Positions 21,026 through 57,429 of a stretch of DNA of 64,000 nucleotides are shown here, one piece after another. The translations under genes and the position numbers were made by a program. Positions within the stretch are counted from its first letter, which is position 1. Each line of letters begins with the position of its first letter. The notes under the pieces are model-generated. The model was not told the origin of the DNA, did no database searches, and worked only from the letters and a program-made list of their open reading frames with translations. Source of the DNA: Bdellovibrionales bacterium (GTDB lineage Bacteria > Bdellovibrionota > Bdellovibrionia > Bdellovibrionales > Bdellovibrionaceae); assembly GCA_031370005.1 (NCBI GenBank), contig JANMPT010000117.1, forward strand, positions 1-64,000, written 5' to 3'.

Positions 21026-21487
21026 TTAAGAGTAAAGGTTTTTTGCCTTTTTATAGCCCAAGGAGATCAAGAGACGTAGAGCTTCGATGTCAGCGCTTAG
21101 GTTGAGCTGCTCCCGAATCTCAGAAACCATGGCTTTGCTTTTGTCATCAAGCGGACTTAGTAAATCCATAGAAATATGGTTGTTTTGGATACTTACTTGC
21201 TTTGCCGGAGCTGTCGTCTGAGGAGCAGAAGCCTGAAATACTGGTGCCGTACTTTCGAGTTGCCCCATCATACCAGCTAAACTTTTAAGCTCTTTTTTAA
21301 AATTCTGGATGCTCGGTGTATCCAGAGCCTCATCGCCATTGCGCTGAGCCTTCAGAAATAATGTGCACAGAATGTCAGGAGTCGTCGCGAGCTCTCTAAT
21401 AGACTCATTCTGATGTACAAGCCACATATAGGCCTTCGTCAATGTGTCTTTTGTATATGCCTGAGGTGGTAGTGGATTCATGTTCAT
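21026..21487 (-). CDS. Hypothetical protein
   Basis: Long ORF, probable start ATG 21487 (MNMNPLPPQAYTK...); no recognised family. Confidence 0.6.
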   Translation of the reverse strand: MNMNPLPPQAYTKDTLTKAYMWLVHQNESIRELATTPDILCTLFLKAQRNGDEALDTPSIQNFKKELKSLAGMMGQLESTAPVFQASAPQTTAPAKQVSIQNNHISMDLLSPLDDKSKAMVSEIREQLNLSADIEALRLLISLGYKKAKNLYS

Positions 21488-21620
21488 GAGGGACAGAAAG
21501 ATATTGTTCTTGAGCCGGGCAGTCAATTCTCGAGTCCCCACTAGCCGGGATTTTTAAGAAATATATTTCTATACACATTGCGAAAATGGCAGGGATTTCA
21601 CTTGATAAAGATGATCTAAT

Positions 21621-21687: not shown

Positions 21688-22794
21688 TTATTTTAGGAAA
21701 TCGCCCAGCATCCGCGCGCCCAGAACGACTTCGGTCTTAATTTGATCATCGCCAGTTGCAGGTTTTGTTGTGATGCTATTGTACGCAAGATGGTAACGAA
21801 AGTTTTCAGCTGTTGGTTTGTACTCAAGTATAGCGCCATATCCAACGAATTTATTATTTTGAGACGTCGTTAGTCCAATTTCTCTGTTTTCTTCGGAAGT
21901 ATAGGCCTCAAGACGTGGAGTCCATTGGTCCATTTTATAGCCAAGCTTTAAAATTGCAGCATAGACTTGGTCTTTGTTTCCGCTTGTGCCGTCTTTATAC
22001 TCAGTCGTATTGTATTCAAGACTGCCAATCCAATCGGACTCATGCTTGATGCCAGCTGACGCGAAAGTATGTTTATTACCAGAAGCCGCCGTGGCACCTT
22101 GAGGAGAGGCCTCATGATAACTCAAAAGGCCCGTAAGGGTTTTATCGAGGAAAGTGCCCTTCCAAGTTAAGCCCATCAATCCACGGTTTTGATTGAAGTT
22201 GCCGCCGGAGTCATTGGAGTCAGAAATATTATTCATAGCCAAGAAATAGATATGCTGGTCAAACATACTTAAGTCGCCCTTGGCACCTGTCATATAAAGA
22301 ATATTTGACGCTCCAGATTGATTGATGCCGATATTGCTGCCGCTCAAAGATTTTACAGCTACGTGCTGGTAAATAGGAGAAACCATATAAAGATCAGCGC
22401 CCGAGGTTGCGCCCTCGAAGCCGCCAATTTCTGTATTTACTTTTCCCAAGGAGAGAGCAAACATATCGCTCATTTTATCTGTAACGTAGGCATATTCTAC
22501 AGAGCTGTTGACGGAGTCACGTTTGGAATTTGATGGAACTCCAGAAGTTGTGCTGACGCTGTCTACCGCAGGTTTATAAAAGCCCCAACGAAGTTGGTAG
22601 TTAATGCGGTCATTAAGATTTCCCTTAAAGTCCAGTCGCCCTGTTTTGATATAGAAACGAGTATAATCAGACAAATTTGCTGCGTCATTATAGTGCACGC
22701 TTTGCCAGTCACCGCGGAAATCATAGTTAAGCGTATTGGCATGGGCGCTCGCGGAAGCGATGAGCACAACTAAAAGAGTCAAAAGAGTTTTCAT
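21688..22794 (-). CDS. Outer-membrane porin-like beta-barrel
   Basis: Signal peptide ASAHA; RLDFKG, VEYAY, amphipathic strands; C-terminal aromatic residue. Confidence 0.75.
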   Translation of the reverse strand: MKTLLTLLVVLIASASAHANTLNYDFRGDWQSVHYNDAANLSDYTRFYIKTGRLDFKGNLNDRINYQLRWGFYKPAVDSVSTTSGVPSNSKRDSVNSSVEYAYVTDKMSDMFALSLGKVNTEIGGFEGATSGADLYMVSPIYQHVAVKSLSGSNIGINQSGASNILYMTGAKGDLSMFDQHIYFLAMNNISDSNDSGGNFNQNRGLMGLTWKGTFLDKTLTGLLSYHEASPQGATAASGNKHTFASAGIKHESDWIGSLEYNTTEYKDGTSGNKDQVYAAILKLGYKMDQWTPRLEAYTSEENREIGLTTSQNNKFVGYGAILEYKPTAENFRYHLAYNSITTKPATGDDQIKTEVVLGARMLGDFLK

Positions 22795-22824
22795 AGATAA
22801 GCCATCCTTGTTGTTATATTAAAA

Positions 22825-22863
22825 ACTTAAAACCCGATCATGTTTATTGATCGGGTTTTAAGT
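22825..22863 (-). terminator. 16-bp perfect inverted repeat closing the rSAM-peptide-HK-RR operon
   Basis: ACTTAAAACCCGATCA-tgtttat-TGATCGGGTTTTAAGT, 29 nt after the response regulator stop. Confidence 0.7.
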
Positions 22864-22891
22864 CAAGTATTTTTTATATATGAAAGTGAGC

Positions 22892-24415
22892 TTAGATTGA
22901 ATAGTCTTTGGCAACGATCCCATATTTTTCAATTTTGCGAAGCAAAGTTTTCTTCGGGATGTTTGCATGCAAAGCCGTTTGGTTTATGCGGCCTTTGAAG
23001 ACCTTCAATGCTTTAATTATGAACTCTTTTTCAAAAGTTTCTTTCTGTGCGTTAAAGTCAAGATTGCTATCTAAAGTAGCAGGGGCAGGAGCTTCACCCA
23101 TATTGCCCTCAAGATTTAAGTCCTCGCCATCAAGCATATCCAAGTCGTCCTTATCACCAAGATCTACTTCTGTGGTAGCTGCAGCTCTTGCCTCAAGAGA
23201 ATGTAATTGTGAAAGAATATCGATCAAATTAGCACCTGCGGCTGCCAAAACAACCTCAGGAAGAGACGCGAGAGTAATGACATTGTTGGTTTCAAGTACG
23301 AAAGCATGTTCAATGACATTTTCAAGCTCGCGAATATTGCCTGGCCATTGATATTTCTTAAGTGCTGACAAGGCATCAGCGGCCACCCCAGAAATACGCT
23401 TGCTATGACTGGCATTAAATTTTTTGATGAAAATATTAATGAGATTTTCAATGTCTTCTTTGCGGTCCGCAAGAGCGGGTAAGAATATGGGAACGACATT
23501 CAAACGATAGAATAGATCTTCCCGGAAGCTGCCAGCTTTGATCATTTCTTCCAAGGGGCGATTGGTCGCCGCTACGATTCTTACATTGGTTGAGATTTCG
23601 CGATTCGAGCCTACAGGAGTGAACATTTTTTCCTGAAGAACGCGCAAGATTTTAACTTGCATCATTACCGGCATATCGCCGATTTCATCTAAGAACAGAG
23701 TCCCACCTTCGGTGAATTGGAATTTGCCAATTTTGCGTTGATCAGCCCCGGTAAAAGAGCCTTTTTCATGTCCGAAAAGTTCGGATTCAAAAAGATTTTC
23801 CGGAATCGCAGAACAGTTGATAGCTACGAACTTCTCATCTTTACGGGCCGAGTTGTAGTGTATTGCTTTAGCCACAAGCTCTTTGCCGGAGCCCGAAGCC
23901 CCGCGAATCAATACTGGAGTGTCTACTTTGGCAAGGCGGTGAATAATATTGAATACCTTTTGCATTTGTTGGGTATTGCCAATGATCTTGCGACCGGCCT
24001 CGACTAAAACCGGAGCAGAAGCCGCGATATTATAGATCATCGTATGAGCCGAAACGGCCTTGTCAACCAACGCGAGGAGCTCGTCGCCAGAAACTGGCTT
24101 TGATAAATAATTGTAGGCACCATCTTTCACAGCTTGAACAGCGTGATCCAAAGTTGCATGGGCTGTGATCATCAATACGATAATACCTGGATCATGTTCT
24201 TTAATAAGTCGGAGTGCTTCAAGGCCATTAATACGTGGCATATCAACATCGAGAATAACGACATCAAATTTTTTCTCGTCACTGGACTTCACCTTTTCGA
24301 TTGCATTCAGGCCATCGAAAGCCTCTTCGACTTCAAAACGTGCCGATGAGACGAGCGCCGTCTTAACTGAGAGTCTCAACCCCTGATCGTCATCGACCAC
24401 TAAAACCCTAAGCAT
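22892..24415 (-). CDS. NtrC-family sigma54-dependent response regulator (REC-AAA+-Fis HTH)
   Basis: VVDDD, LDVDMP, GASGSGKE, ESELFGHEKGSFTGA, LFLDEIG, WPGNIRELEN, C-terminal HTH. Confidence 0.95.
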   Translation of the reverse strand: MLRVLVVDDDQGLRLSVKTALVSSARFEVEEAFDGLNAIEKVKSSDEKKFDVVILDVDMPRINGLEALRLIKEHDPGIIVLMITAHATLDHAVQAVKDGAYNYLSKPVSGDELLALVDKAVSAHTMIYNIAASAPVLVEAGRKIIGNTQQMQKVFNIIHRLAKVDTPVLIRGASGSGKELVAKAIHYNSARKDEKFVAINCSAIPENLFESELFGHEKGSFTGADQRKIGKFQFTEGGTLFLDEIGDMPVMMQVKILRVLQEKMFTPVGSNREISTNVRIVAATNRPLEEMIKAGSFREDLFYRLNVVPIFLPALADRKEDIENLINIFIKKFNASHSKRISGVAADALSALKKYQWPGNIRELENVIEHAFVLETNNVITLASLPEVVLAAAGANLIDILSQLHSLEARAAATTEVDLGDKDDLDMLDGEDLNLEGNMGEAPAPATLDSNLDFNAQKETFEKEFIIKALKVFKGRINQTALHANIPKKTLLRKIEKYGIVAKDYSI

Positions 24416-26285
24416 GTGACCTCCCCTGTTCCAGAGGCAGTTCTACAGTAAAAGTGCTGCCTTTTCCATAGGTACTTTCTACAAAAATTCTGCCTTGATG
24501 TAATTCTGTAAAGTATTTAGCAAGATAGAGCCCGAGCCCAGATCCTTTTATAGGAGAGCTTTTCGCATTCTTACTCCGAAAAAATTTCATAAAAATATTA
24601 TTCACTTCATCTTGAGGAATTCCAGGGCCGCAGTCCTCAACGCGTACGATGACTTTGCCGTCTTTTTCTTTGCTATGGACTCGTACTTGAGACTCTTCAG
24701 GGCTGTATTTGATTGCGTTCTCAATCAGGTTCGAAAAGACCTGCTTCATCAGCTCTGGGTCGACTTGAATCGGAAACAGAGGCTCGGATTCAAACTCAAT
24801 TGGGATGCGTTTTACTTTAGCTAAGAACTCGTGCTTACGAATCACATCTTTTAAGAGCGAGTTCACATCGCGACTTTGCATATGAAGTTCAACGCCTTGG
24901 CTTTCGATTTTTCCATAATTTAAAATTGTATTTATAAACTTTAAAAGGTCATCGCCCGAGTGGCGAATAGTATCTAGAGCCTCTCGTTGTTGCGAGCTCA
25001 AGGCTTGAGGGTCTTTTAAAATAACATCCGTCATGCCTTGAATACGCGCAATTGGTGTTTTCAAATCATGGGACATCATTGAAATAAAATTGCCTTTAAG
25101 CTCTTCGACCTGAGAGAGGAGCTTATTTTTTTGGTAGTATTCCCAACTGCGCCGATTCTCAATGATAAGTCGATAGGGAATAAAGAAGTAATAACACAAG
25201 AAGATAGCTAAGAGGGGGTGAGCCATCTTGATCCAATATTCAAATGGCCAAAAGCCAAGGGCGCTCATTGCGATTAAAGTCACGCCAGTCATCGCAAGAA
25301 TAGTCAGACTGCGGATCGGTTTCATGGTGAAAAGAACGTGAACTGTTAAAATCGACGTTAAAATAGTCACTAGGATATTCAGCCACGGAGGGGCTTGGAT
25401 CGGAGCATTATTCTGAATCAAAGTATCAATCATGTTGGCATTTAATTCAACCAGGGTCATCGCCTTGGCATTCGATGAAAAGGGCGTCTTTGCGTAGTCG
25501 CGGATAGCTCCGCCATGGTCATTCCCGAGAAGAATTATTTTATTTTTAAATTGGCCAGGTAAAAACCGACCATCCATTACATCTTCAAAAGAGGTCCGCG
25601 GATAGGAGTTCGTTTTTCGATAACTGATATAGACTTGTTCCGAGTCAAAGAACCCAAAAAGTCCGTGAATATTTTTTTTTATTTTAATATCAGGGTTCAC
25701 AAGTCCCGCAATATAGGGTTGGGCCATCTGGCGATCCTGATAAGTGATCATCATACGGCGAGTTACTTTATCCTGTGCGAGTACGTCGCCATCGTTTGTA
25801 CGTGGCCCCGGAAAGATTTCAATGGAGCTTAAGGGCTCAGCGAGTTTGAGCTTGCCCTCTTCGCCCTTCATCTCGAGATCTTGGCTGATCATGTAGAGAT
25901 TATTAATTTTTTTTGCTTCCTCCGCGAAAGCCTTTTTTTCCTCAAGAGTCCCTTGAAGCTCGTCAAGGTTTTGCGTGTAAAGCAAGGCAAGAGGTTCTTC
26001 CCTTTCAATCTGCTTAAGAAGCTCCAATTGGTCTTTAGCTGTTGGAAGACCTTTTAGGCTCTCAACAGTTTTCGAGGTGGTCACGATTGTTTCAATATGT
26101 CCAGATGGGGACGGCTTGGGCAACAATCGAATTCGCATATCATAGAGCCCGGACTCCCAGGAATCTAGCTTGAGTTGGCTGATAAATACGCCCATCGCAC
26201 AGGCTAAAACAAGGCGCAGGGCAGAGTATAAAACCCCACCTTTAAAAAAGCCTGTTGTATGAGTGTGCGACGGAATCGGTGTCAT
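24408..26285 (-). CDS. CHASE2-domain sensor histidine kinase
   Basis: TM, then E..LYD.R, D.VTRR, FKNKIILLG, TPF, ANMIDTL, then 3 TM, SHDLKTP, NLIENAIKYS, GSGLGL. Start reassigned to ATG 26285. Confidence 0.9.
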   Translation of the reverse strand: MTPIPSHTHTTGFFKGGVLYSALRLVLACAMGVFISQLKLDSWESGLYDMRIRLLPKPSPSGHIETIVTTSKTVESLKGLPTAKDQLELLKQIEREEPLALLYTQNLDELQGTLEEKKAFAEEAKKINNLYMISQDLEMKGEEGKLKLAEPLSSIEIFPGPRTNDGDVLAQDKVTRRMMITYQDRQMAQPYIAGLVNPDIKIKKNIHGLFGFFDSEQVYISYRKTNSYPRTSFEDVMDGRFLPGQFKNKIILLGNDHGGAIRDYAKTPFSSNAKAMTLVELNANMIDTLIQNNAPIQAPPWLNILVTILTSILTVHVLFTMKPIRSLTILAMTGVTLIAMSALGFWPFEYWIKMAHPLLAIFLCYYFFIPYRLIIENRRSWEYYQKNKLLSQVEELKGNFISMMSHDLKTPIARIQGMTDVILKDPQALSSQQREALDTIRHSGDDLLKFINTILNYGKIESQGVELHMQSRDVNSLLKDVIRKHEFLAKVKRIPIEFESEPLFPIQVDPELMKQVFSNLIENAIKYSPEESQVRVHSKEKDGKVIVRVEDCGPGIPQDEVNNIFMKFFRSKNAKSSPIKGSGLGLYLAKYFTELHQGRIFVESTYGKGSTFTVELPLEQGRSHA

Positions 26286-26286
26286 G

Positions 26287-26421
26287 CTAGTTGTCAGTTG
26301 CCAAGATATCGCCACCGACAGGAGGACATGGGTTGCCACCGTTGCCGTGACCAAAACTCGCAGTTTGTGTTGTTAGCGGTTTTAGTTTTTTAATGTGTTT
26401 TTTCTTGAGTTTTTCCATCAT
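26287..26421 (-). CDS. Putative RiPP precursor peptide, 44 aa: MMEKLKKKHIKKLKPLTTQTASFGHGNGGNPCPPVGGDILATDN
   Basis: Translated by hand. GGAGAG RBS at 26425-26430; overlaps the rSAM 3' end; TAG stop lies 1 nt before the kinase ATG; basic leader plus a Gly/Asn/Pro core with one Cys. Confidence 0.75.
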   Translation of the reverse strand: MMEKLKKKHIKKLKPLTTQTASFGHGNGGNPCPPVGGDILATDN

Positions 26422-27733
26422 CTTCTCTCCCGCGACACTGCTCATAATAGACCAGCGTTAAAGCCACCATAAATCTTGTTCGCTCACAAAATTGCGAGTT
26501 TTTAATATTTTTATTACCTGAACCATGCTTGTGAACAAACATACAACCGCCACCGCACAAAAATCTAGCCCAGCAGTTTTCACACTTATTTGCCTCAAGA
26601 ATTGGCTTTTGATAAGCCTCTAAAGTTTTTTCGTTGAGTTCAGTGCCTTGACCGACTTGCTCTTTTTTGTCGTTTACATCCCAAGGGCACGTATAGATCT
26701 GATTGCGGGCATCGATCATTAAAAAAGATTTTCCCGCACCACAGTAGTTTTCTGTCCGTCGCTGTTGATCCAAAGATTGAAAGTGCTGTTCAAAAATTCG
26801 AATTTTCCTTAAAGCGCTCTCGCCACCTTTAGTGAAAGCAGAAGCCGCTAGCTTCGTCATTTGGCTCATGTACTCGACAGTTGCGCGGGGATTGTTCTCA
26901 GAGACCGAAAAAGAAAAATCATAACTATCGACATCGAATTTGGAGTAAAACTCGTAAGCCTTTTCAAGCTCCATGTTATTGCTGTCAAATACGCCATGGA
27001 TCAAGATATGGCTAAACTCCATTTTGCGAGCGAGGAGCCTTTCAAGACCAGCAACGATCATTGCTGTGGGGGAAGTGCCATTTTTAGTTGGGCGCATAAT
27101 ATCGTTGATCTCAGGAGGACCATCAAGACTGATGGTTACGGAGGCTTTCATGCTTGCTAAGATATCGAGGTTTTTATCTGTCAGTAATGTGCCATTGGTG
27201 ATGATGGTGTAATTCACAGTGCGCTCAGGGGCGACTTCAGCAACATATTTTGCTATCAAGGCAAGGCCTTCGGCATAAAGCAAGGGCTCTCCGCCTAAGA
27301 AGCTGATGTTAAAGCTGACGTTTGGTGGCAAACGATCGAGAAAAAATTTAAGTTGAGGCAAAGTTTTCTCAATGGAGATCTTGGCAATCGTATCGCCAAA
27401 AGTTCCATCTCCGCCGGCAGCGCAGTAATTGCAATGCAGGTTGCAGATCTGAGTGACGTTCAAAGTGAGAAAGCGAATCACGGAATTGATTTTGCTAATT
27501 TTTACATCGGGGTTATTTTCAACATCCCAGGATTTAAGCTCTGTAAGTGCTTCATTTATTTTTTGCGATTGAATGACTTCTGGGGCAGCAGAGTTGAGTA
27601 AAGTCGTAGGAGACATGTTTAGCCAAGTAGACTCAGAAATTTGCGCCACTTCCATATTGCGCGCGTGGAAAGCCAAAAGCGCTCCCGCTTCCGATTTTAG
27701 CGCTAAAATGTCATTATAGCGTCGCAATTCCAT
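26390..27733 (-). CDS. Radical SAM/SPASM peptide maturase (CteB/QhpD/anSME-like)
   Basis: CNLHCNYC, FLGGEPLL, ITNGTLL, ISLDG; 7-Cys SPASM C-x17-C...Cx2Cx5Cx3C-x18-C; about 85-aa N-terminal extension that may be an RRE. Confidence 0.9.
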   Translation of the reverse strand: MELRRYNDILALKSEAGALLAFHARNMEVAQISESTWLNMSPTTLLNSAAPEVIQSQKINEALTELKSWDVENNPDVKISKINSVIRFLTLNVTQICNLHCNYCAAGGDGTFGDTIAKISIEKTLPQLKFFLDRLPPNVSFNISFLGGEPLLYAEGLALIAKYVAEVAPERTVNYTIITNGTLLTDKNLDILASMKASVTISLDGPPEINDIMRPTKNGTSPTAMIVAGLERLLARKMEFSHILIHGVFDSNNMELEKAYEFYSKFDVDSYDFSFSVSENNPRATVEYMSQMTKLAASAFTKGGESALRKIRIFEQHFQSLDQQRRTENYCGAGKSFLMIDARNQIYTCPWDVNDKKEQVGQGTELNEKTLEAYQKPILEANKCENCWARFLCGGGCMFVHKHGSGNKNIKNSQFCERTRFMVALTLVYYEQCRGREDDGKTQEKTH

Positions 27734-27784
27734 TGAGCTTTCCCCAGTGTCTTTTTGACACTAATAATTCCATGGGCTTAAATG

Positions 27785-27801
27785 TGCAATTAGGGGGCCA
27801 G
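27785..27801 (-). promoter_or_regulatory. Sigma54 -24/-12 promoter of the rSAM operon
   Basis: Minus strand CTGGCCCCCTAATTGCA: GG (27799-98) and GC (27787-86) are 12 nt apart with a full TTGCA, about 52 nt before the ATG. Confidence 0.7.
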
Positions 27802-27913
27802 TTTTAATTTTGTCACCACAAATAAAAACTTAATAAAAACATATAGTTACATATTCATCTGAAGAAGTAAACCAGGCCTCGGTAGAGCCACAATGTAACT
27901 ATTTCGTTATTGT

Positions 27914-29632
27914 CTAGAGTTTCAAGCACTCATGGTGGAAGTCTTTTAGAGCGGCCTCGTCATGGCTGAAGCTCACTAGAATCATCTGCGGGAAGCTTGC
28001 GATAAGGTCAAGATAGAGTTCTTTTTCAGTTTCTTTTCCAAGTGCAGAAGTGGCTTCATCCAAGAAAACTAGTTCGGGTTTTTGCAAGAAAATGCGGGCA
28101 ATGGCGACTCGTTGTTGTTCGCCCGAAGACAGGCGCATAGACCAGTTTTCTTCTTGATCAAGGGCTTGAGCCAAGTGGTTAAGTCGGGTCAGAGTCAAAA
28201 CTTTTTGATACTCGAGATCACTAAAGAGGCTGCCATCCATCGGATAAGCCAAGGTCGCACGTAGACTGCCGATGGGTAGATAAGCTTTTTGGGTGAGGGC
28301 AAGGCGATGGCTTTCTTTGGGAATTCGCACATGGCCTGAAATATAAGGCCAAATGCCATTCATACTCCGAAGCAGAGAAGTTTTTCCTTTGCCGGAGGCG
28401 GCCGTGATCAGAATCCGTTTTCCTGGCGTGAGTTGCAAGCTCAGTGCCGTAAGCAGGCTTTGATGTTCGGGCGTCATCACACTTAAGTTTTCTATTTCAT
28501 ATGAACCCGTAGTTATCTGAACACTTTGTGTGACAGTTTTGTGGCGAAGTTTACTGTTTTCCTCAAGCGAAAGAAGGAAGCCTCCAAGACGAACGATGAC
28601 GGAGTGAAGGCGCGCGATCTTAGCATACATATCGACAAAAACGGAGACGGATCCTTGAACTTGGCCAAAGGCACTACTGATCTGAAAGAGCTGCCCCAAT
28701 GTGATTTCACGAGTAAAAACCTTCGGTGAGGCCACAATGAATGGAAAAATATATGCTAGCTGACCATAGATATTGGTTGTCACGATAAGCTTCTTCTGAC
28801 GAGAGATCAATTTCTTGAAATTTCCCACGACCTGAAAGAACTTGGTCGAGAGTTTTTGTTTCTCGACGCGTTCACCGTTAAGGAGAGCAATGCTTTCGCT
28901 GTTCTCACGAAGTCGCACCAGGAGATAACGGAAGTCAGCTTCGAGCTTTTGTTGCATAAAATTGATTTTTGAGAGGGGGCTGCCAATTTTATGAACGACC
29001 CAGGTGCCAATGACGGCATACAACAGACAGATCCACACCAAGTAGCGATGAATCTCAATGTCATAACCCATCATATTTGTGAACTTGATTGAGCTTGAAA
29101 GTCCCCACAGAATACCAATGAAAGAAACAAAGGTGATGAACTCTCGCAAGATTTTTTCTGAAATTTCTAGGCTCAAGTCCGTCAGCTCGTGAATATCATC
29201 TGAGAGCCGTTGATCGGGATTGTCATTATTATTGGTGGTGATATGCCAGTAGTAGAAGTTTTTTTCTGAAAGCCAGTGGGTGAGATTTTTTTCGGTGACC
29301 CATTTCCTCCAATTGATTCCCAGGCTTTGTAGAACATAGTACTTGTAAGCCATAATGACCGAATAAGAGAGCGCAATAATGAAAAACCGGCGGAGCTGGT
29401 GGAAGAACTCTTCTTTATTGAGATTTTGAAGGGCGTCGTAAAATGCTTGATTCCAACGATTGAGTAAAACTAGGCTGTAAACCATTCCGAGAATTAATAA
29501 CAAGGTTAGCAACAGCAGACCCCGCGCCCTCCAACGATTTTCGGAGCGGGTCCAATATGGAAGCACAAGCTCTTTTAGAACTATTCGGATCGAATGCCAT
29601 TTCTTGGTGCTTTTCAGCTTTTGCGAGCCCAT
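27914..29632 (-). CDS. Fused ABC transporter, YddA/BacA (ABC_membrane_2, Rv1819c-like) family
   Basis: FYDALQ, DNPDQR, EADFRYLLVRLRENSESIAL, SGKGKTS, LSSGEQQR, LDEATSAL. Confidence 0.9.
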   Translation of the reverse strand: MGSQKLKSTKKWHSIRIVLKELVLPYWTRSENRWRARGLLLLTLLLILGMVYSLVLLNRWNQAFYDALQNLNKEEFFHQLRRFFIIALSYSVIMAYKYYVLQSLGINWRKWVTEKNLTHWLSEKNFYYWHITTNNNDNPDQRLSDDIHELTDLSLEISEKILREFITFVSFIGILWGLSSSIKFTNMMGYDIEIHRYLVWICLLYAVIGTWVVHKIGSPLSKINFMQQKLEADFRYLLVRLRENSESIALLNGERVEKQKLSTKFFQVVGNFKKLISRQKKLIVTTNIYGQLAYIFPFIVASPKVFTREITLGQLFQISSAFGQVQGSVSVFVDMYAKIARLHSVIVRLGGFLLSLEENSKLRHKTVTQSVQITTGSYEIENLSVMTPEHQSLLTALSLQLTPGKRILITAASGKGKTSLLRSMNGIWPYISGHVRIPKESHRLALTQKAYLPIGSLRATLAYPMDGSLFSDLEYQKVLTLTRLNHLAQALDQEENWSMRLSSGEQQRVAIARIFLQKPELVFLDEATSALGKETEKELYLDLIASFPQMILVSFSHDEAALKDFHHECLKL

Positions 29633-29795: not shown

Positions 29796-30776
29796 ATGTC
29801 TTTAACCATGAAGTACTGGGGAGTAAGAGGCTCGCTTCCATCCTCGCCATCGCCATCCGATTGGACCAACCATATTGAAGGACTGCTTCGCGGGTTTTTC
29901 AATGCTGGATTGCGTGATGCTACTCAGGTTTCCAAGTATATTGACTCCTTAGGCGCTGCACATCTTGGCGGTTATGGCGCGGCAACAACATGTGTAGAAG
30001 TTAAGAGTGCAAAAAATCGTATTATCATCGATGGTGGCAGTGGTATTCGCTCCTTGAGTGAACAGATCATGAGTGGAAAAGCAGGGACGAGCAAAGGACC
30101 TTTTCATATTTTCATGACTCACTTTCACTGGGATCATGTGATCGGCTTGCCATTTTTTACTCCTCACTTTGTCCCAGGCGTTCAAATTCATTACTACGCA
30201 GTCCAACCAGAGCTTGAGAAATTGATTCGTGGGGTTTTTGCAAAACCATATTTTCCAGTACCTTTTGAGTCCCTTGCCTCAAAAGTTCATTTCCATATTT
30301 TGGAGCCAAGAAAAACGATCGAACTCGATGATATGAAGATTACACCCTATCAGCTTGATCATCCAGACCCTTGCTGGGGCTTCCGTGTGGATTGTGGTGG
30401 TAAAGCCTATGCACACTGCGTGGATACAGAAGGAACTCGGGTTTCCCGTGAAGAGTTGGGGAATGATCTACCACTCTATCAAGGGATTGATTTGATGTAC
30501 TATGATGCTCAATACACCTTTCCAGAGCTCGCAGAAAAAGCGAACTGGGGTCATAGTGCTGCGCAAGTGGGGCTCGACGTCGCCTTTCGCGAAGGTATCA
30601 AGCATGTTCTTTTTGCCCATCACGATCCTGGAGCGACGATTCAACAGCTCCAAGAGCTAAAACGTCAAACCCTTGAGTATTATGACTGGCGCTTAAGCGT
30701 GGCTAAAGAAAATGCCGAGTCACTTAGCTCTGTTCAATGGGACTTTGCCTACGAAGGCCTCACTGTAAAACTTTAG
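29796..30776 (+). CDS. MBL-fold metallo-hydrolase (phosphodiesterase/RNase Z-like)
   Basis: YWGVRGS, THFHWDHVIG, DAQYT, WGHS, HHDP. Confidence 0.85.
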   Translation: MSLTMKYWGVRGSLPSSPSPSDWTNHIEGLLRGFFNAGLRDATQVSKYIDSLGAAHLGGYGAATTCVEVKSAKNRIIIDGGSGIRSLSEQIMSGKAGTSKGPFHIFMTHFHWDHVIGLPFFTPHFVPGVQIHYYAVQPELEKLIRGVFAKPYFPVPFESLASKVHFHILEPRKTIELDDMKITPYQLDHPDPCWGFRVDCGGKAYAHCVDTEGTRVSREELGNDLPLYQGIDLMYYDAQYTFPELAEKANWGHSAAQVGLDVAFREGIKHVLFAHHDPGATIQQLQELKRQTLEYYDWRLSVAKENAESLSSVQWDFAYEGLTVKL

Positions 30777-57412: not shown

Positions 57413-57429
57413 TTGGCACTCCTGTTGCT
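57413..57429 (+). promoter_or_regulatory. Sigma54 promoter of the fliL operon
   Basis: TTGGCACTCCTGTTGCT, near-perfect TGGCAC-N5-TTGCW. Confidence 0.85.

Follow-up and report, generated by a model that had tools for sequence, protein, structure and literature searches.

Why should a sensor kinase and its transcriptional activator be encoded behind a peptide-modifying enzyme and a small peptide? The question is raised by a four-gene operon in a 64,000-nt stretch of DNA from a Bdellovibrionales bacterium (contig JANMPT010000117.1; this whole stretch is hereafter the window), which encodes a radical S-adenosylmethionine (SAM)/SPASM peptide maturase, a short putative precursor peptide, a CHASE2 sensor histidine kinase and an NtrC-type sigma54 activator. 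A preliminary description of the window had proposed that the operon makes a modified peptide, senses it through CHASE2 and re-activates its own promoter. Our analysis showed that enzyme, peptide, kinase and activator form a conserved operon of sigma54 type, and in published arrays the orthologues in Bdellovibrio bacteriovorus HD100 are induced together on prey entry. The activator that serves the promoter, the chemistry of the enzyme and the role of the peptide are what we infer. At roughly even confidence, we propose that a module for a RiPP (a peptide made by the ribosome and modified after translation) sits inside an older, self-activated sigma54 two-component operon, which Bdellovibrio-type predators switch on inside their prey.

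All four genes lie on the minus strand, and coordinates are positions in the window. The maturase (447 aa; Pfam Radical_SAM, 6e-18) is encoded at 26390-27733 and overlaps by 32 nt the open reading frame (ORF) of the precursor peptide at 26287-26421, which gives 44 aa from the chosen ATG and 52 aa from an alternative ATG further upstream at 26445. A single base (26286) separates the peptide stop codon from the ATG of the kinase gene (24408-26285, 625 aa from the ATG at 26285; Pfam CHASE2, HisKA and HATPase_c). The ORF list called the kinase frame from a TTG at 26354, but the alignment with orthologues begins at residue 5 of the protein read from the ATG. Kinase and activator genes overlap by 8 nt (24408-24415), the latter occupying 22892-24415 and encoding 507 aa with a receiver, an AAA+ domain and a Fis-type helix-turn-helix (HTH). 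These coordinates and all three junctions agree with the preliminary description. An intrinsic-terminator-like hairpin closes the operon at 22824-22864 on the same strand (17 pairs, 6 of them G-C, a loop of 7 and a T-rich tail); it had been described earlier with 16 bp. The window holds 7 terminator-like sites, against 5.3 ± 2.3 expected. No RNA run was listed for the window, and the 2 sequencing runs that contain it or part of it are metagenome DNA from one study.

For comparison, 117 loci were fetched, of which 106 remained distinct after removal of duplicates (designated below by L and a number). A locus was regarded as having room for the kinase when at least 2.6 kb of sequence lay beyond the enzyme, and a kinase was counted when it lay on the same strand within 900 nt. 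The results showed that the kinase follows the enzyme in all 91 Bdellovibrionales loci with room, that the activator follows the kinase in 74 of the 77 loci with room (the exceptions being L053, L090 and L123), and that 99 of the 106 distinct loci carry a peptide-family ORF in the spacer between enzyme and kinase. The unit is rearranged in L053 and L123, where the activator gene does not come after the kinase but is on the opposite strand, upstream of the enzyme. The enzyme-peptide-kinase locus L090, whose enzyme is 47% identical to that of the window, lies on a contig labelled as a Streptomyces griseus metagenome-assembled genome, a label that is probably a binning or labelling error.

Among 61 related genomes, 40 had an orthologue of the enzyme; for the family of the window the count was 34 of 36. 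A sample across the phylum, which overlaps with the former in its family members, gave the enzyme in 43 of 301 genomes: 34 of 35 in the same family, 5/18, 1/1 and 1/1 in other families of the order, 1 of 14 in one family outside the order, and none in every other family. When species-representative genomes were scanned for the enzyme, 530 relatives were obtained; among the best 80 of these, 79 were labelled Bdellovibrio, Pseudobdellovibrionaceae, Bdellovibrionales or Bdellovibrionota, and B. bacteriovorus strains were included. The four-gene unit is nearly universal in the family, and the source of the window, taken earlier for a probable predator, is one of the Bdellovibrio predators.

A short ORF of one common design was found in each enzyme-kinase spacer examined. 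A script picked 30 spacer ORFs, from which a hidden Markov model (HMM) was made. Searched against every stop-to-stop ORF in the loci and the window (52,505 in all), the model matched 99 of the 106 distinct loci, 88 of them at E ≤ 0.01, and all 101 matching ORFs lie in the enzyme-kinase spacer, with none elsewhere. Among the seven loci lacking a match, two (L100 and L122) have no room and two (L054 and L057) show a divergent copy by eye; the other three are L115, L117 and L134. The window's genome contains a single copy (E 1.1e-12), the next best of its 125,145 ORFs scoring an E value of 2. Tandem precursor genes with different cores were observed at L031:7291-7566, L104:7232-7560 and L056:7341-7609. 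The ORF belongs to no Pfam or NCBIfam family, and none of 87 peptides of the family had a meaningful NCBIfam match. In HD100, 109J and Tiberius the peptide is annotated as a 38-aa "hypothetical protein", and it is probably unannotated in B. bacteriovorus Bd16, since the GenBank record has a single accession number between enzyme and activator.

The peptides share an N-terminal, Lys-rich leader, typically K-H-I-K-K-(V/I/L)-K-P, then a variable linker and a short C-terminal core of the pattern G-C-x-P-x-x; the window peptide has the leader K-H-I-K-K-L-K-P and the core G-N-P-C-P-P-V-G-G-D. The core Cys is present in 100 of 101 peptides, the sole exception being cut by a contig end, and exactly one Cys occurs from leader to end in 92 of 95. 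Counted over the 100 peptides with the Cys, Pro stands at +2 in 96, Gly at -3 in 63 and at -1 in 50, while position +4 is Gly in 48, Arg in 15, Lys in 10 and Asn in 7. The C-terminus lies 3-4 residues past the Cys in 43, and a longer tail with Asp or Glu after the Cys is found in 40, so that a carboxylate closely follows the Cys (C-terminus at +3/+4, or Asp/Glu) in 83. Judged by these sequences, the small ORF is a real and conserved precursor-like peptide and would define a new single-Cys RiPP family.

The maturase carries a CxxxCxxC motif (C97/C101/C104) and seven further Cys residues (C331, C349, C384, C387, C393, C397 and C416), all invariant in 27 orthologues, and all seven auxiliary Cys align with those of CteB in a profile match. 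The Pfam SPASM model was not among the matches at E ≤ 0.01. With the CxxxCxxC motif, the seven Cys and an adjacent precursor of leader-core design, the enzyme has the general features of a radical SAM/SPASM RiPP maturase, as far as sequence can tell. The nearest solved protein by profile is CteB (5wgg; E 3.2e-47, match from residue 31), followed by anSME (E 2.4e-21), 8vpo (TigE according to its Foldseek title) and ChlB. An AlphaFold2 model of the enzyme (predicted local distance difference test, pLDDT, 89.5; predicted template modelling score, pTM, 0.89) gave CteB as the top Foldseek match, with a template modelling score (TM) of 0.78 over the whole length including the N-terminal domain, and then anSME, ChlB and TigE. 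By analogy with CteB, the N-terminal ~88 residues, with the conserved pattern F-H..N-L-E-V-A-E-L-S..W, may bind the leader.

Against NCBIfam, the best match of the enzyme was PapB (NF047865; 156.9 bits, cut-off 340), and then came the nif11-type model (147.8, cut-off 518.7), SCIFF (TIGR03974; 128.6, cut-off 425), CcpM (126.1, cut-off 500), QhpD (119.2, cut-off 453), the geopeptide model (96.8, cut-off 400) and anSME (TIGR03942; 88.9, cut-off 349.45). All these scores are far below the cut-offs, and the enzyme therefore represents a family without a curated model. With the ranthipeptide systems of CteB/SCIFF and PapB it shares the CxxxCxxC motif and seven-Cys SPASM part, the CteB-type N-terminal domain, a small precursor gene adjoining the enzyme and Cys as the presumed class of residue modified. 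It differs from both in score, in that a CHASE2 kinase and a sigma54 activator accompany it, and in its restriction to Bdellovibrionales; the precursor has its own Lys-rich leader and one Cys instead of six, without the repeated C-X3-D/E. An Asp or Glu downstream of the Cys, as in the PapB family, is seen in just 40/100 peptides, and the SCIFF precursor model TIGR03973 matched 1 of 87 peptides, at E 0.1. With anSME the enzyme shares the SPASM fold, and the core C-x-P-x-(R/K/G) resembles the sulfatase signature; here, however, the substrate would be a free peptide of ~30-50 aa rather than a sulfatase, and the enzyme has an extra N-terminal domain.

Since the nearest relatives make Cys thioethers and a carboxylate stands near the Cys in 83/100 peptides, a small thioether ring is favoured. 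From sequence comparison, the most likely product has a thioether between the Cys and a nearby carbon beside a carboxylate, which would belong to the C-terminal residue or to an Asp/Glu after the Cys; the mass would change by -2 Da. Conversion of the Cys to formylglycine (an aldehyde peptide, -18 Da, without a ring), or an epimerisation (0 Da), is a possibility that we entertain tentatively; it concerns the enzymatic step alone and is compatible with every regulatory reading discussed below. C-x-P-x-R is the sulfatase signature recognized by anSME, the anaerobic sulfatase-maturating enzyme, and the only invariant features of the core are the Cys and the Pro at +2; cores such as C-I-P-V-R fit that signature, Arg or Lys occupies +4 in a minority, no acceptor residue is conserved in the core, and anSME is the second-best solved relative by profile and stands at rank 4 in Foldseek. 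On the other hand, Gly is the most frequent residue at +4 (48/100), the enzymes that form thioethers (PapB, SCIFF and QhpD) score higher than anSME, the profile match to CteB is far stronger than that to anSME, and the N-terminal domain superposes on that of CteB, whereas the anSME matches start at profile residue 89.

An SbmA/BacA-type ATP-binding cassette (ABC) transporter gene (27914-29632, minus strand; a membrane domain fused to the ABC ATPase) lies directly 5' of the operon promoter, and a 180-nt spacer separates it from the maturase gene. In this spacer, 52 nt before the maturase ATG, we found the sigma54-type -24/-12 element TGGCCCCCTAATTGCA (27785-27800, minus strand; TGGCCC-N5-TTGCA, with GG-N10-GC spacing). 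The pattern is not enriched in the window (10 matches vs 6.76 ± 2.41 in shuffled sequences), and the weight of the promoter therefore rests on its conservation. The strict pattern TGG-N8-TTGC(A/T), looked for within 200 nt upstream of the enzyme start on the strand of the enzyme, was present in 70 of the 102 distinct loci with enough upstream sequence, at a median position of -58.5, and in 87 of 102 when the first base was relaxed; the background elsewhere in the loci was 0.0062 (strict) and 0.0251 (relaxed) per 200 nt. The genome of the window also encodes rpoN (462 bits, above the cut-off). A spaced and conserved element of this kind indicates, at the level of sequence, that the unit lies behind a sigma54-type promoter. 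A near-perfect sigma54 consensus, TGGCACTCCTGTTGCT, was also noted elsewhere in the window, at 57414-57429 on the plus strand.

Further upstream, a block invariant in the genus, about 95 nt before the -24 element, contains the distal half-site (10 bases, 27893-27902, minus strand; ATAGTTACAT as read along the operon) of a candidate upstream activator site; this half-site begins 12 nt after the stop codon of the ABC gene. The proximal half-site (27843-27852, plus strand), 50 nt away, repeats the distal one exactly in inverted orientation and played no part in the definition of the motif. In the 3.2-Mb genome the word ATAGTTACAT occurs without mismatch at 7 places, against about 12 expected; the inverted pair is unique in that genome at up to 1 mismatch per half, and it lies 45-105 nt upstream of the -24 element. 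This is the place expected for an enhancer-binding protein, and the adjacent activator is the candidate binder. Between the promoter and the ribosome-binding site, a hairpin with a 6-bp stem and a 5-nt loop (27746-27762, minus strand) was found in the presumed 5' untranslated region; across 7 closely related sequences of the genus, 97.6% of its cells are paired, 2 of the 6 pairs have changed on both sides and G-U-compatible changes occur.

The unit was then traced to strain HD100. The 38-aa peptide of L065 is identical to the HD100 protein Q6MI21. In the protein tables of PMC12546842, Q6MI22 is Bd3357 (labelled "Heme biosynthesis"; eggNOG "Radical SAM superfamily"), Q6MI20 is Bd3359 (histidine kinase) and Q6MI19 is Bd3360 (sigma54-specific regulator), and the gene table of PMC3627812 places Bd3358, a hypothetical gene of 117 nt, between Bd3357 and Bd3359. 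The peptide identity, the numbering and the position of Bd3358 together identify the HD100 unit as Bd3357-Bd3360. The part of PMC3526173 that mentions the Bd3359 orthologue gives it a "RAS-like GTPase motif", which conflicts with the CHASE2 kinase found here and may be a numbering or annotation slip. A literature search on the HD100 locus tags of the unit found no functional study.

Lambert et al. (2010, PMC2797640) name Bd3359 and Bd3360 when they list sensor-regulator genes that rise in predation, and the array sheets of that paper list the whole unit as induced on entry into the bdelloplast: 1.59/1.58-fold for Bd3357, 2.23/2.03 for Bd3358, 2.18/2.11 for Bd3359 and 3.02/2.98 for Bd3360, with t-tests ≤ 4e-5. 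All four stand on the sheet of genes "up in Bd, not in HI", that is, not in host-independent growth, and the adjoining gene Bd3361 is unchanged (1.06/1.04). In the RNA-seq table of Karunker et al. (2013, PMC3627812), the reads per kilobase per million in attack and growth phase are 0.71/41.0, 2.6/26.0, 1.29/33.9 and 4.4/88.4 for Bd3357 to Bd3360, respectively. In the protein tables of the 2025 proteome (PMC12546842), Bd3357, Bd3359 and Bd3360 are detected, the unique peptides numbering 18, 29 and 27, respectively; the level of the activator is highest at 3 h (log2 fold change 1.96, false discovery rate 6e-16), the kinase is up by 0.86, the change of the enzyme (0.27) is not significant, and Bd3358 is not among the proteins listed.

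The kinase has the domain order of a CHASE2 sensor histidine kinase, with CHASE2 (PF05226; 75.2 bits, cut-off 26.3) at residues 29-313 followed by HisKA (62.1 bits) and HATPase_c (100.3 bits), and its hydrophobic stretches suggest that the CHASE2 domain is periplasmic. The activator matched Response_reg, Sigma54_activat (3.3e-72), AAA_lid_14 and HTH_8; Response_reg, Sigma54_activat and HTH_8 exceed the Pfam cut-offs, as do the three domains of the kinase. The translation of the activator contains the loop G-S-F-T-G-A, which we take to be a variant of GAFTGA; these domains, together with the rpoN gene of the genome, are those of an NtrC-type enhancer-binding regulator.

The CHASE2 half of the kinase was matched in 55 of the 61 relatives, including genomes without the enzyme. 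Eleven loci without the enzyme were fetched; L148 was set aside because it is cut by a contig end and its genome is 72% complete, leaving L138-L147. In the eleven, the kinase was followed by the activator in 11/11 and the downstream family hyp171 (see below) was present in 9/11, with the enzyme in 0/11; the peptide HMM reached a best E value of 0.69 over them, which is noise level. The genomes of the other ten, from 7 families, are 97-100% complete, and the enzyme was not found in them at E ≤ 1e-20. A penicillin-binding-protein-like ORF lies upstream in several of these loci, and the B. bacteriovorus locus has one further upstream; this shared ORF marks the enzyme-less loci as orthologous by position. 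In 6/10 of them a sigma54-like site was found upstream of the kinase.

On a midpoint-rooted tree of concatenated kinase and activator from 93 loci, 10 of them without the enzyme, the enzyme-less loci are interleaved with the enzyme-bearing ones: the enzyme-less L138 is sister to L037 with support 1.0, deep in the main enzyme-bearing clade, and the enzyme-bearing L050 is nested among enzyme-less loci with supports of 0.66-0.985. At least three events of gain or loss are needed, and the kinase-activator pair therefore keeps a function without the peptide. Read from these sequences, the two-component pair is older than, and independent of, the enzyme-peptide part, and this independence speaks against the peptide as the sole input of the kinase.

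These observations are the ground for the reading of a RiPP module under an older two-component system. The kinase would sense a periplasmic cue, not necessarily the peptide, and would phosphorylate the NtrC-type activator, which in turn would bind the paired upstream element and open the sigma54 promoter. That the adjacent activator self-activates the operon in this way is plausible from its adjacency and from the conserved upstream element. The pair would raise its own level, and maturase and precursor would be made alongside; the maturase, using its N-terminal domain to grip the Lys-rich leader (K-H-I-K-K-V-K-P), would modify the lone Cys of the short core, and the modified peptide, made in the bdelloplast, would be the output of the system.

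Several points weigh against this proposal. The linkage of enzyme, peptide and kinase is unbroken down to 33% enzyme identity, which appears tighter than usual co-regulation and, by analogy, resembles signal-receptor operons; no alternative cue for the kinase is known, and no data point to a target of the peptide. The genome encodes about 10 full sigma54 activators, and the promoter is assigned to the adjacent one by adjacency; words like the half-site, at -134 to -185, occur in the genus and some further loci and not in distant ones. A longer tail without Asp or Glu is found in 17/100 cores, so the carboxylate rule for the predicted chemistry is not general. In the published tables, the array fold changes are modest (PMC2797640), the RNA-seq values rest on low read counts (3/52, 1/3 for the peptide gene, 8/63 and 22/132), and most genes of the RNA-seq table are higher in growth phase (PMC3627812).

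The explanation that ranks second is the autoinduction loop of the preliminary description, in which the modified peptide, once outside the cell, would be bound by the CHASE2 domain in the periplasm and would switch on its own sigma54 promoter again; we regard it as a minority possibility. Signal gene, maturase, receptor and activator would all be supplied by the one operon, with the consistency across loci given above, and the precursor is duplicated in L031, L104 and L056. The rise of the four HD100 genes on prey entry and not in host-independent growth fits a signal that accumulates in confinement, going by the array sheets (PMC2797640). Such a peptide, as the cognate ligand of CHASE2, would build up in the sealed periplasm of the prey, trip the sigma54 loop and report being inside the prey, an extension of the loop that we hold to be doubtful.

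Conservation within CHASE2 was compared between the two sets of loci. Some positions are relaxed where the enzyme is missing (R51 kept in 5/11, Q183 in 3/11 and N292 in 5/11), which would speak for the loop, but this is confounded by kinship; of 42 positions conserved at 85% or more in enzyme-bearing loci, 29 keep the consensus in at least 9/11 enzyme-less orthologues and 13 in at least 10/11. The comparison does not discriminate, because the enzyme-less set is more distant (median identity 0.318 vs 0.38). A predicted complex of the 44-aa peptide and the periplasmic part of CHASE2 (residues 36-322; alignment of 87 rows) scored 0.00, with a mark of 0.32; it lent no support and was counted neither way.

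Against the loop stand the persistence of the kinase-activator pair without enzyme and peptide, as described for ten genomes, and the lack of a route to the periplasm within the unit. The precursors, as read from their sequences, have no signal peptide, and no exporter, transporter or leader peptidase is found among the genes of the conserved unit. The ABC gene lies upstream in 5/6 loci of the window's own genus and in 0/31 other loci of the first set. A C39 peptidase transporter was considered as a conserved exporter and rejected: it occurs in 16 of the 61 genomes and bears no relation to the 40 with the enzyme. Export may proceed by another route. Of the preliminary description, then, the conserved unit, the sigma54 site that opens it, the small ORF as a genuine precursor and the seven-Cys SPASM type of the maturase have held, and neither the sensing of the peptide by CHASE2 nor the export that the loop would also need is supported.

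Small connector proteins act on two-component systems inside the cell, and the modified peptide might likewise stay in the cell, acting on the kinase or activator or serving as a peptide-derived cofactor. We judge this quite improbable. The absence of export machinery and of a signal sequence is in its favour, as is the co-translation of the peptide with its supposed targets; however, the peptide has neither a transmembrane segment nor a known connector motif, cofactor pathways have further enzymes and none is conserved here, and no data indicate a cytoplasmic target. That the small ORF is a chance frame in the spacer and the enzyme works on another substrate is scarcely credible: the ORF is short, overlaps the end of the maturase gene in the window, belongs to no known family and has 0 occurrences in the protein tables of the HD100 proteome (PMC12546842), but its HMM finds it only in the spacer, its frame, leader motif and C-x-P core are kept while enzyme identity drops to 33%, it occurs in tandem copies, and Bd3358 is induced 2.2-fold along with its neighbours on the array sheets (PMC2797640).

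Nisin with NisK/NisR, subtilin with SpaK/SpaR and the agr system each encode a modified ribosomal peptide with a kinase and a regulator that control the same cluster. The present operon likewise encodes peptide, histidine kinase and response regulator together, but it uses a radical SAM maturase, a CHASE2 sensor and a sigma54 enhancer-binding regulator in a Gram-negative predator, it has no dedicated exporter or protease, and its sensing of the peptide is putative. With autoregulated systems of the NtrC/ZraR type it shares the receiver-AAA+-Fis HTH architecture, the GG-N10-GC promoter, the paired upstream site and genes lying behind their own promoter; it differs in that the activator scores below the cut-offs (ntrC 420/558.6, ZraR 375/760), CHASE2 serves as the input domain and promoter and kinase have a RiPP pair between them. 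Literature searches found no described system that combines a CHASE2 kinase, a radical SAM enzyme, a precursor peptide and sigma54 regulation or autoinduction, which agrees with the preliminary description, and nothing relevant on Bdellovibrio with radical SAM, CHASE2 or a RiPP precursor, whether by title and abstract or by passages. One supplementary file of the radical SAM RiPP compendium PMC10288494 contains neither "Bdellovibrio" nor "CHASE2"; other lists of that work may include the enzyme. The parts are of known kinds; what is new is their combination, together with the family of the peptide and the subfamily of the enzyme. The HD100 labels read "heme biosynthesis" for the enzyme and "hypothetical protein" for the peptide, and the co-transcription of Bd3359/Bd3360 with a peptide-maturase pair seems to have been overlooked so far.

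Several neighbouring genes were also recorded. A family of 150-220 aa, here named hyp171 (21026-21541, minus strand), follows the activator within 2.2 kb in 57 of 71 loci and does so in loci without the enzyme as well. It is confined to Bdellovibrionota; its N-terminal domain is helical and strongly conserved (M-N-P-L-P-P-Q-A-Y-T-K...), and a hairpin of helices forms the C-terminal part. It gave no Pfam or NCBIfam match, no PDB profile match below E 0.3 and, with an AlphaFold2 model of pLDDT 70 and pTM 0.35, no Foldseek match at E ≤ 0.001; Atlas returned nothing beyond hypothetical proteins of Bdellovibrionota and, at 0.85, a weak lead to MatP. The HD100 gene in its place, Bd3361 ("iron utilization protein"), is the one not co-induced on prey entry. 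In the genus of the window alone, a porin O/P-like gene (21688-22794, minus strand; Pfam 8.2e-06) stands between activator and hyp171 and accompanies the strong terminator at 22824-22864; in other genera hyp171 lies directly 3' of the activator. In B. bacteriovorus the position of the ABC gene is taken by a 681-aa ORF that is unrelated to it and belongs to no Pfam family (L068:3685-5730). Many loci of the family, and the enzyme-less L138 as well, have a metallo-beta-lactamase (MBL)-fold hydrolase gene upstream of the unit (here 29796-30776, plus strand, opposite to the maturase gene), which is probably neighbourhood synteny outside the unit.

To our knowledge, the ligands of CHASE2 domains are largely unknown. 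If the peptide were indeed a confinement signal, CHASE2 would gain a defined ligand, and a radical SAM-derived peptide would become an autoinducer in a Gram-negative bacterium. A minimal five-residue core with a single Cys would be a new substrate for radical SAM enzymology. Because the unit is nearly universal in the family and present in a genetically tractable model organism, it offers a RiPP family, a concrete candidate for what a CHASE2 sensor binds or puts out, and a handle on how an intraperiplasmic predator may sense or mark its growth phase.

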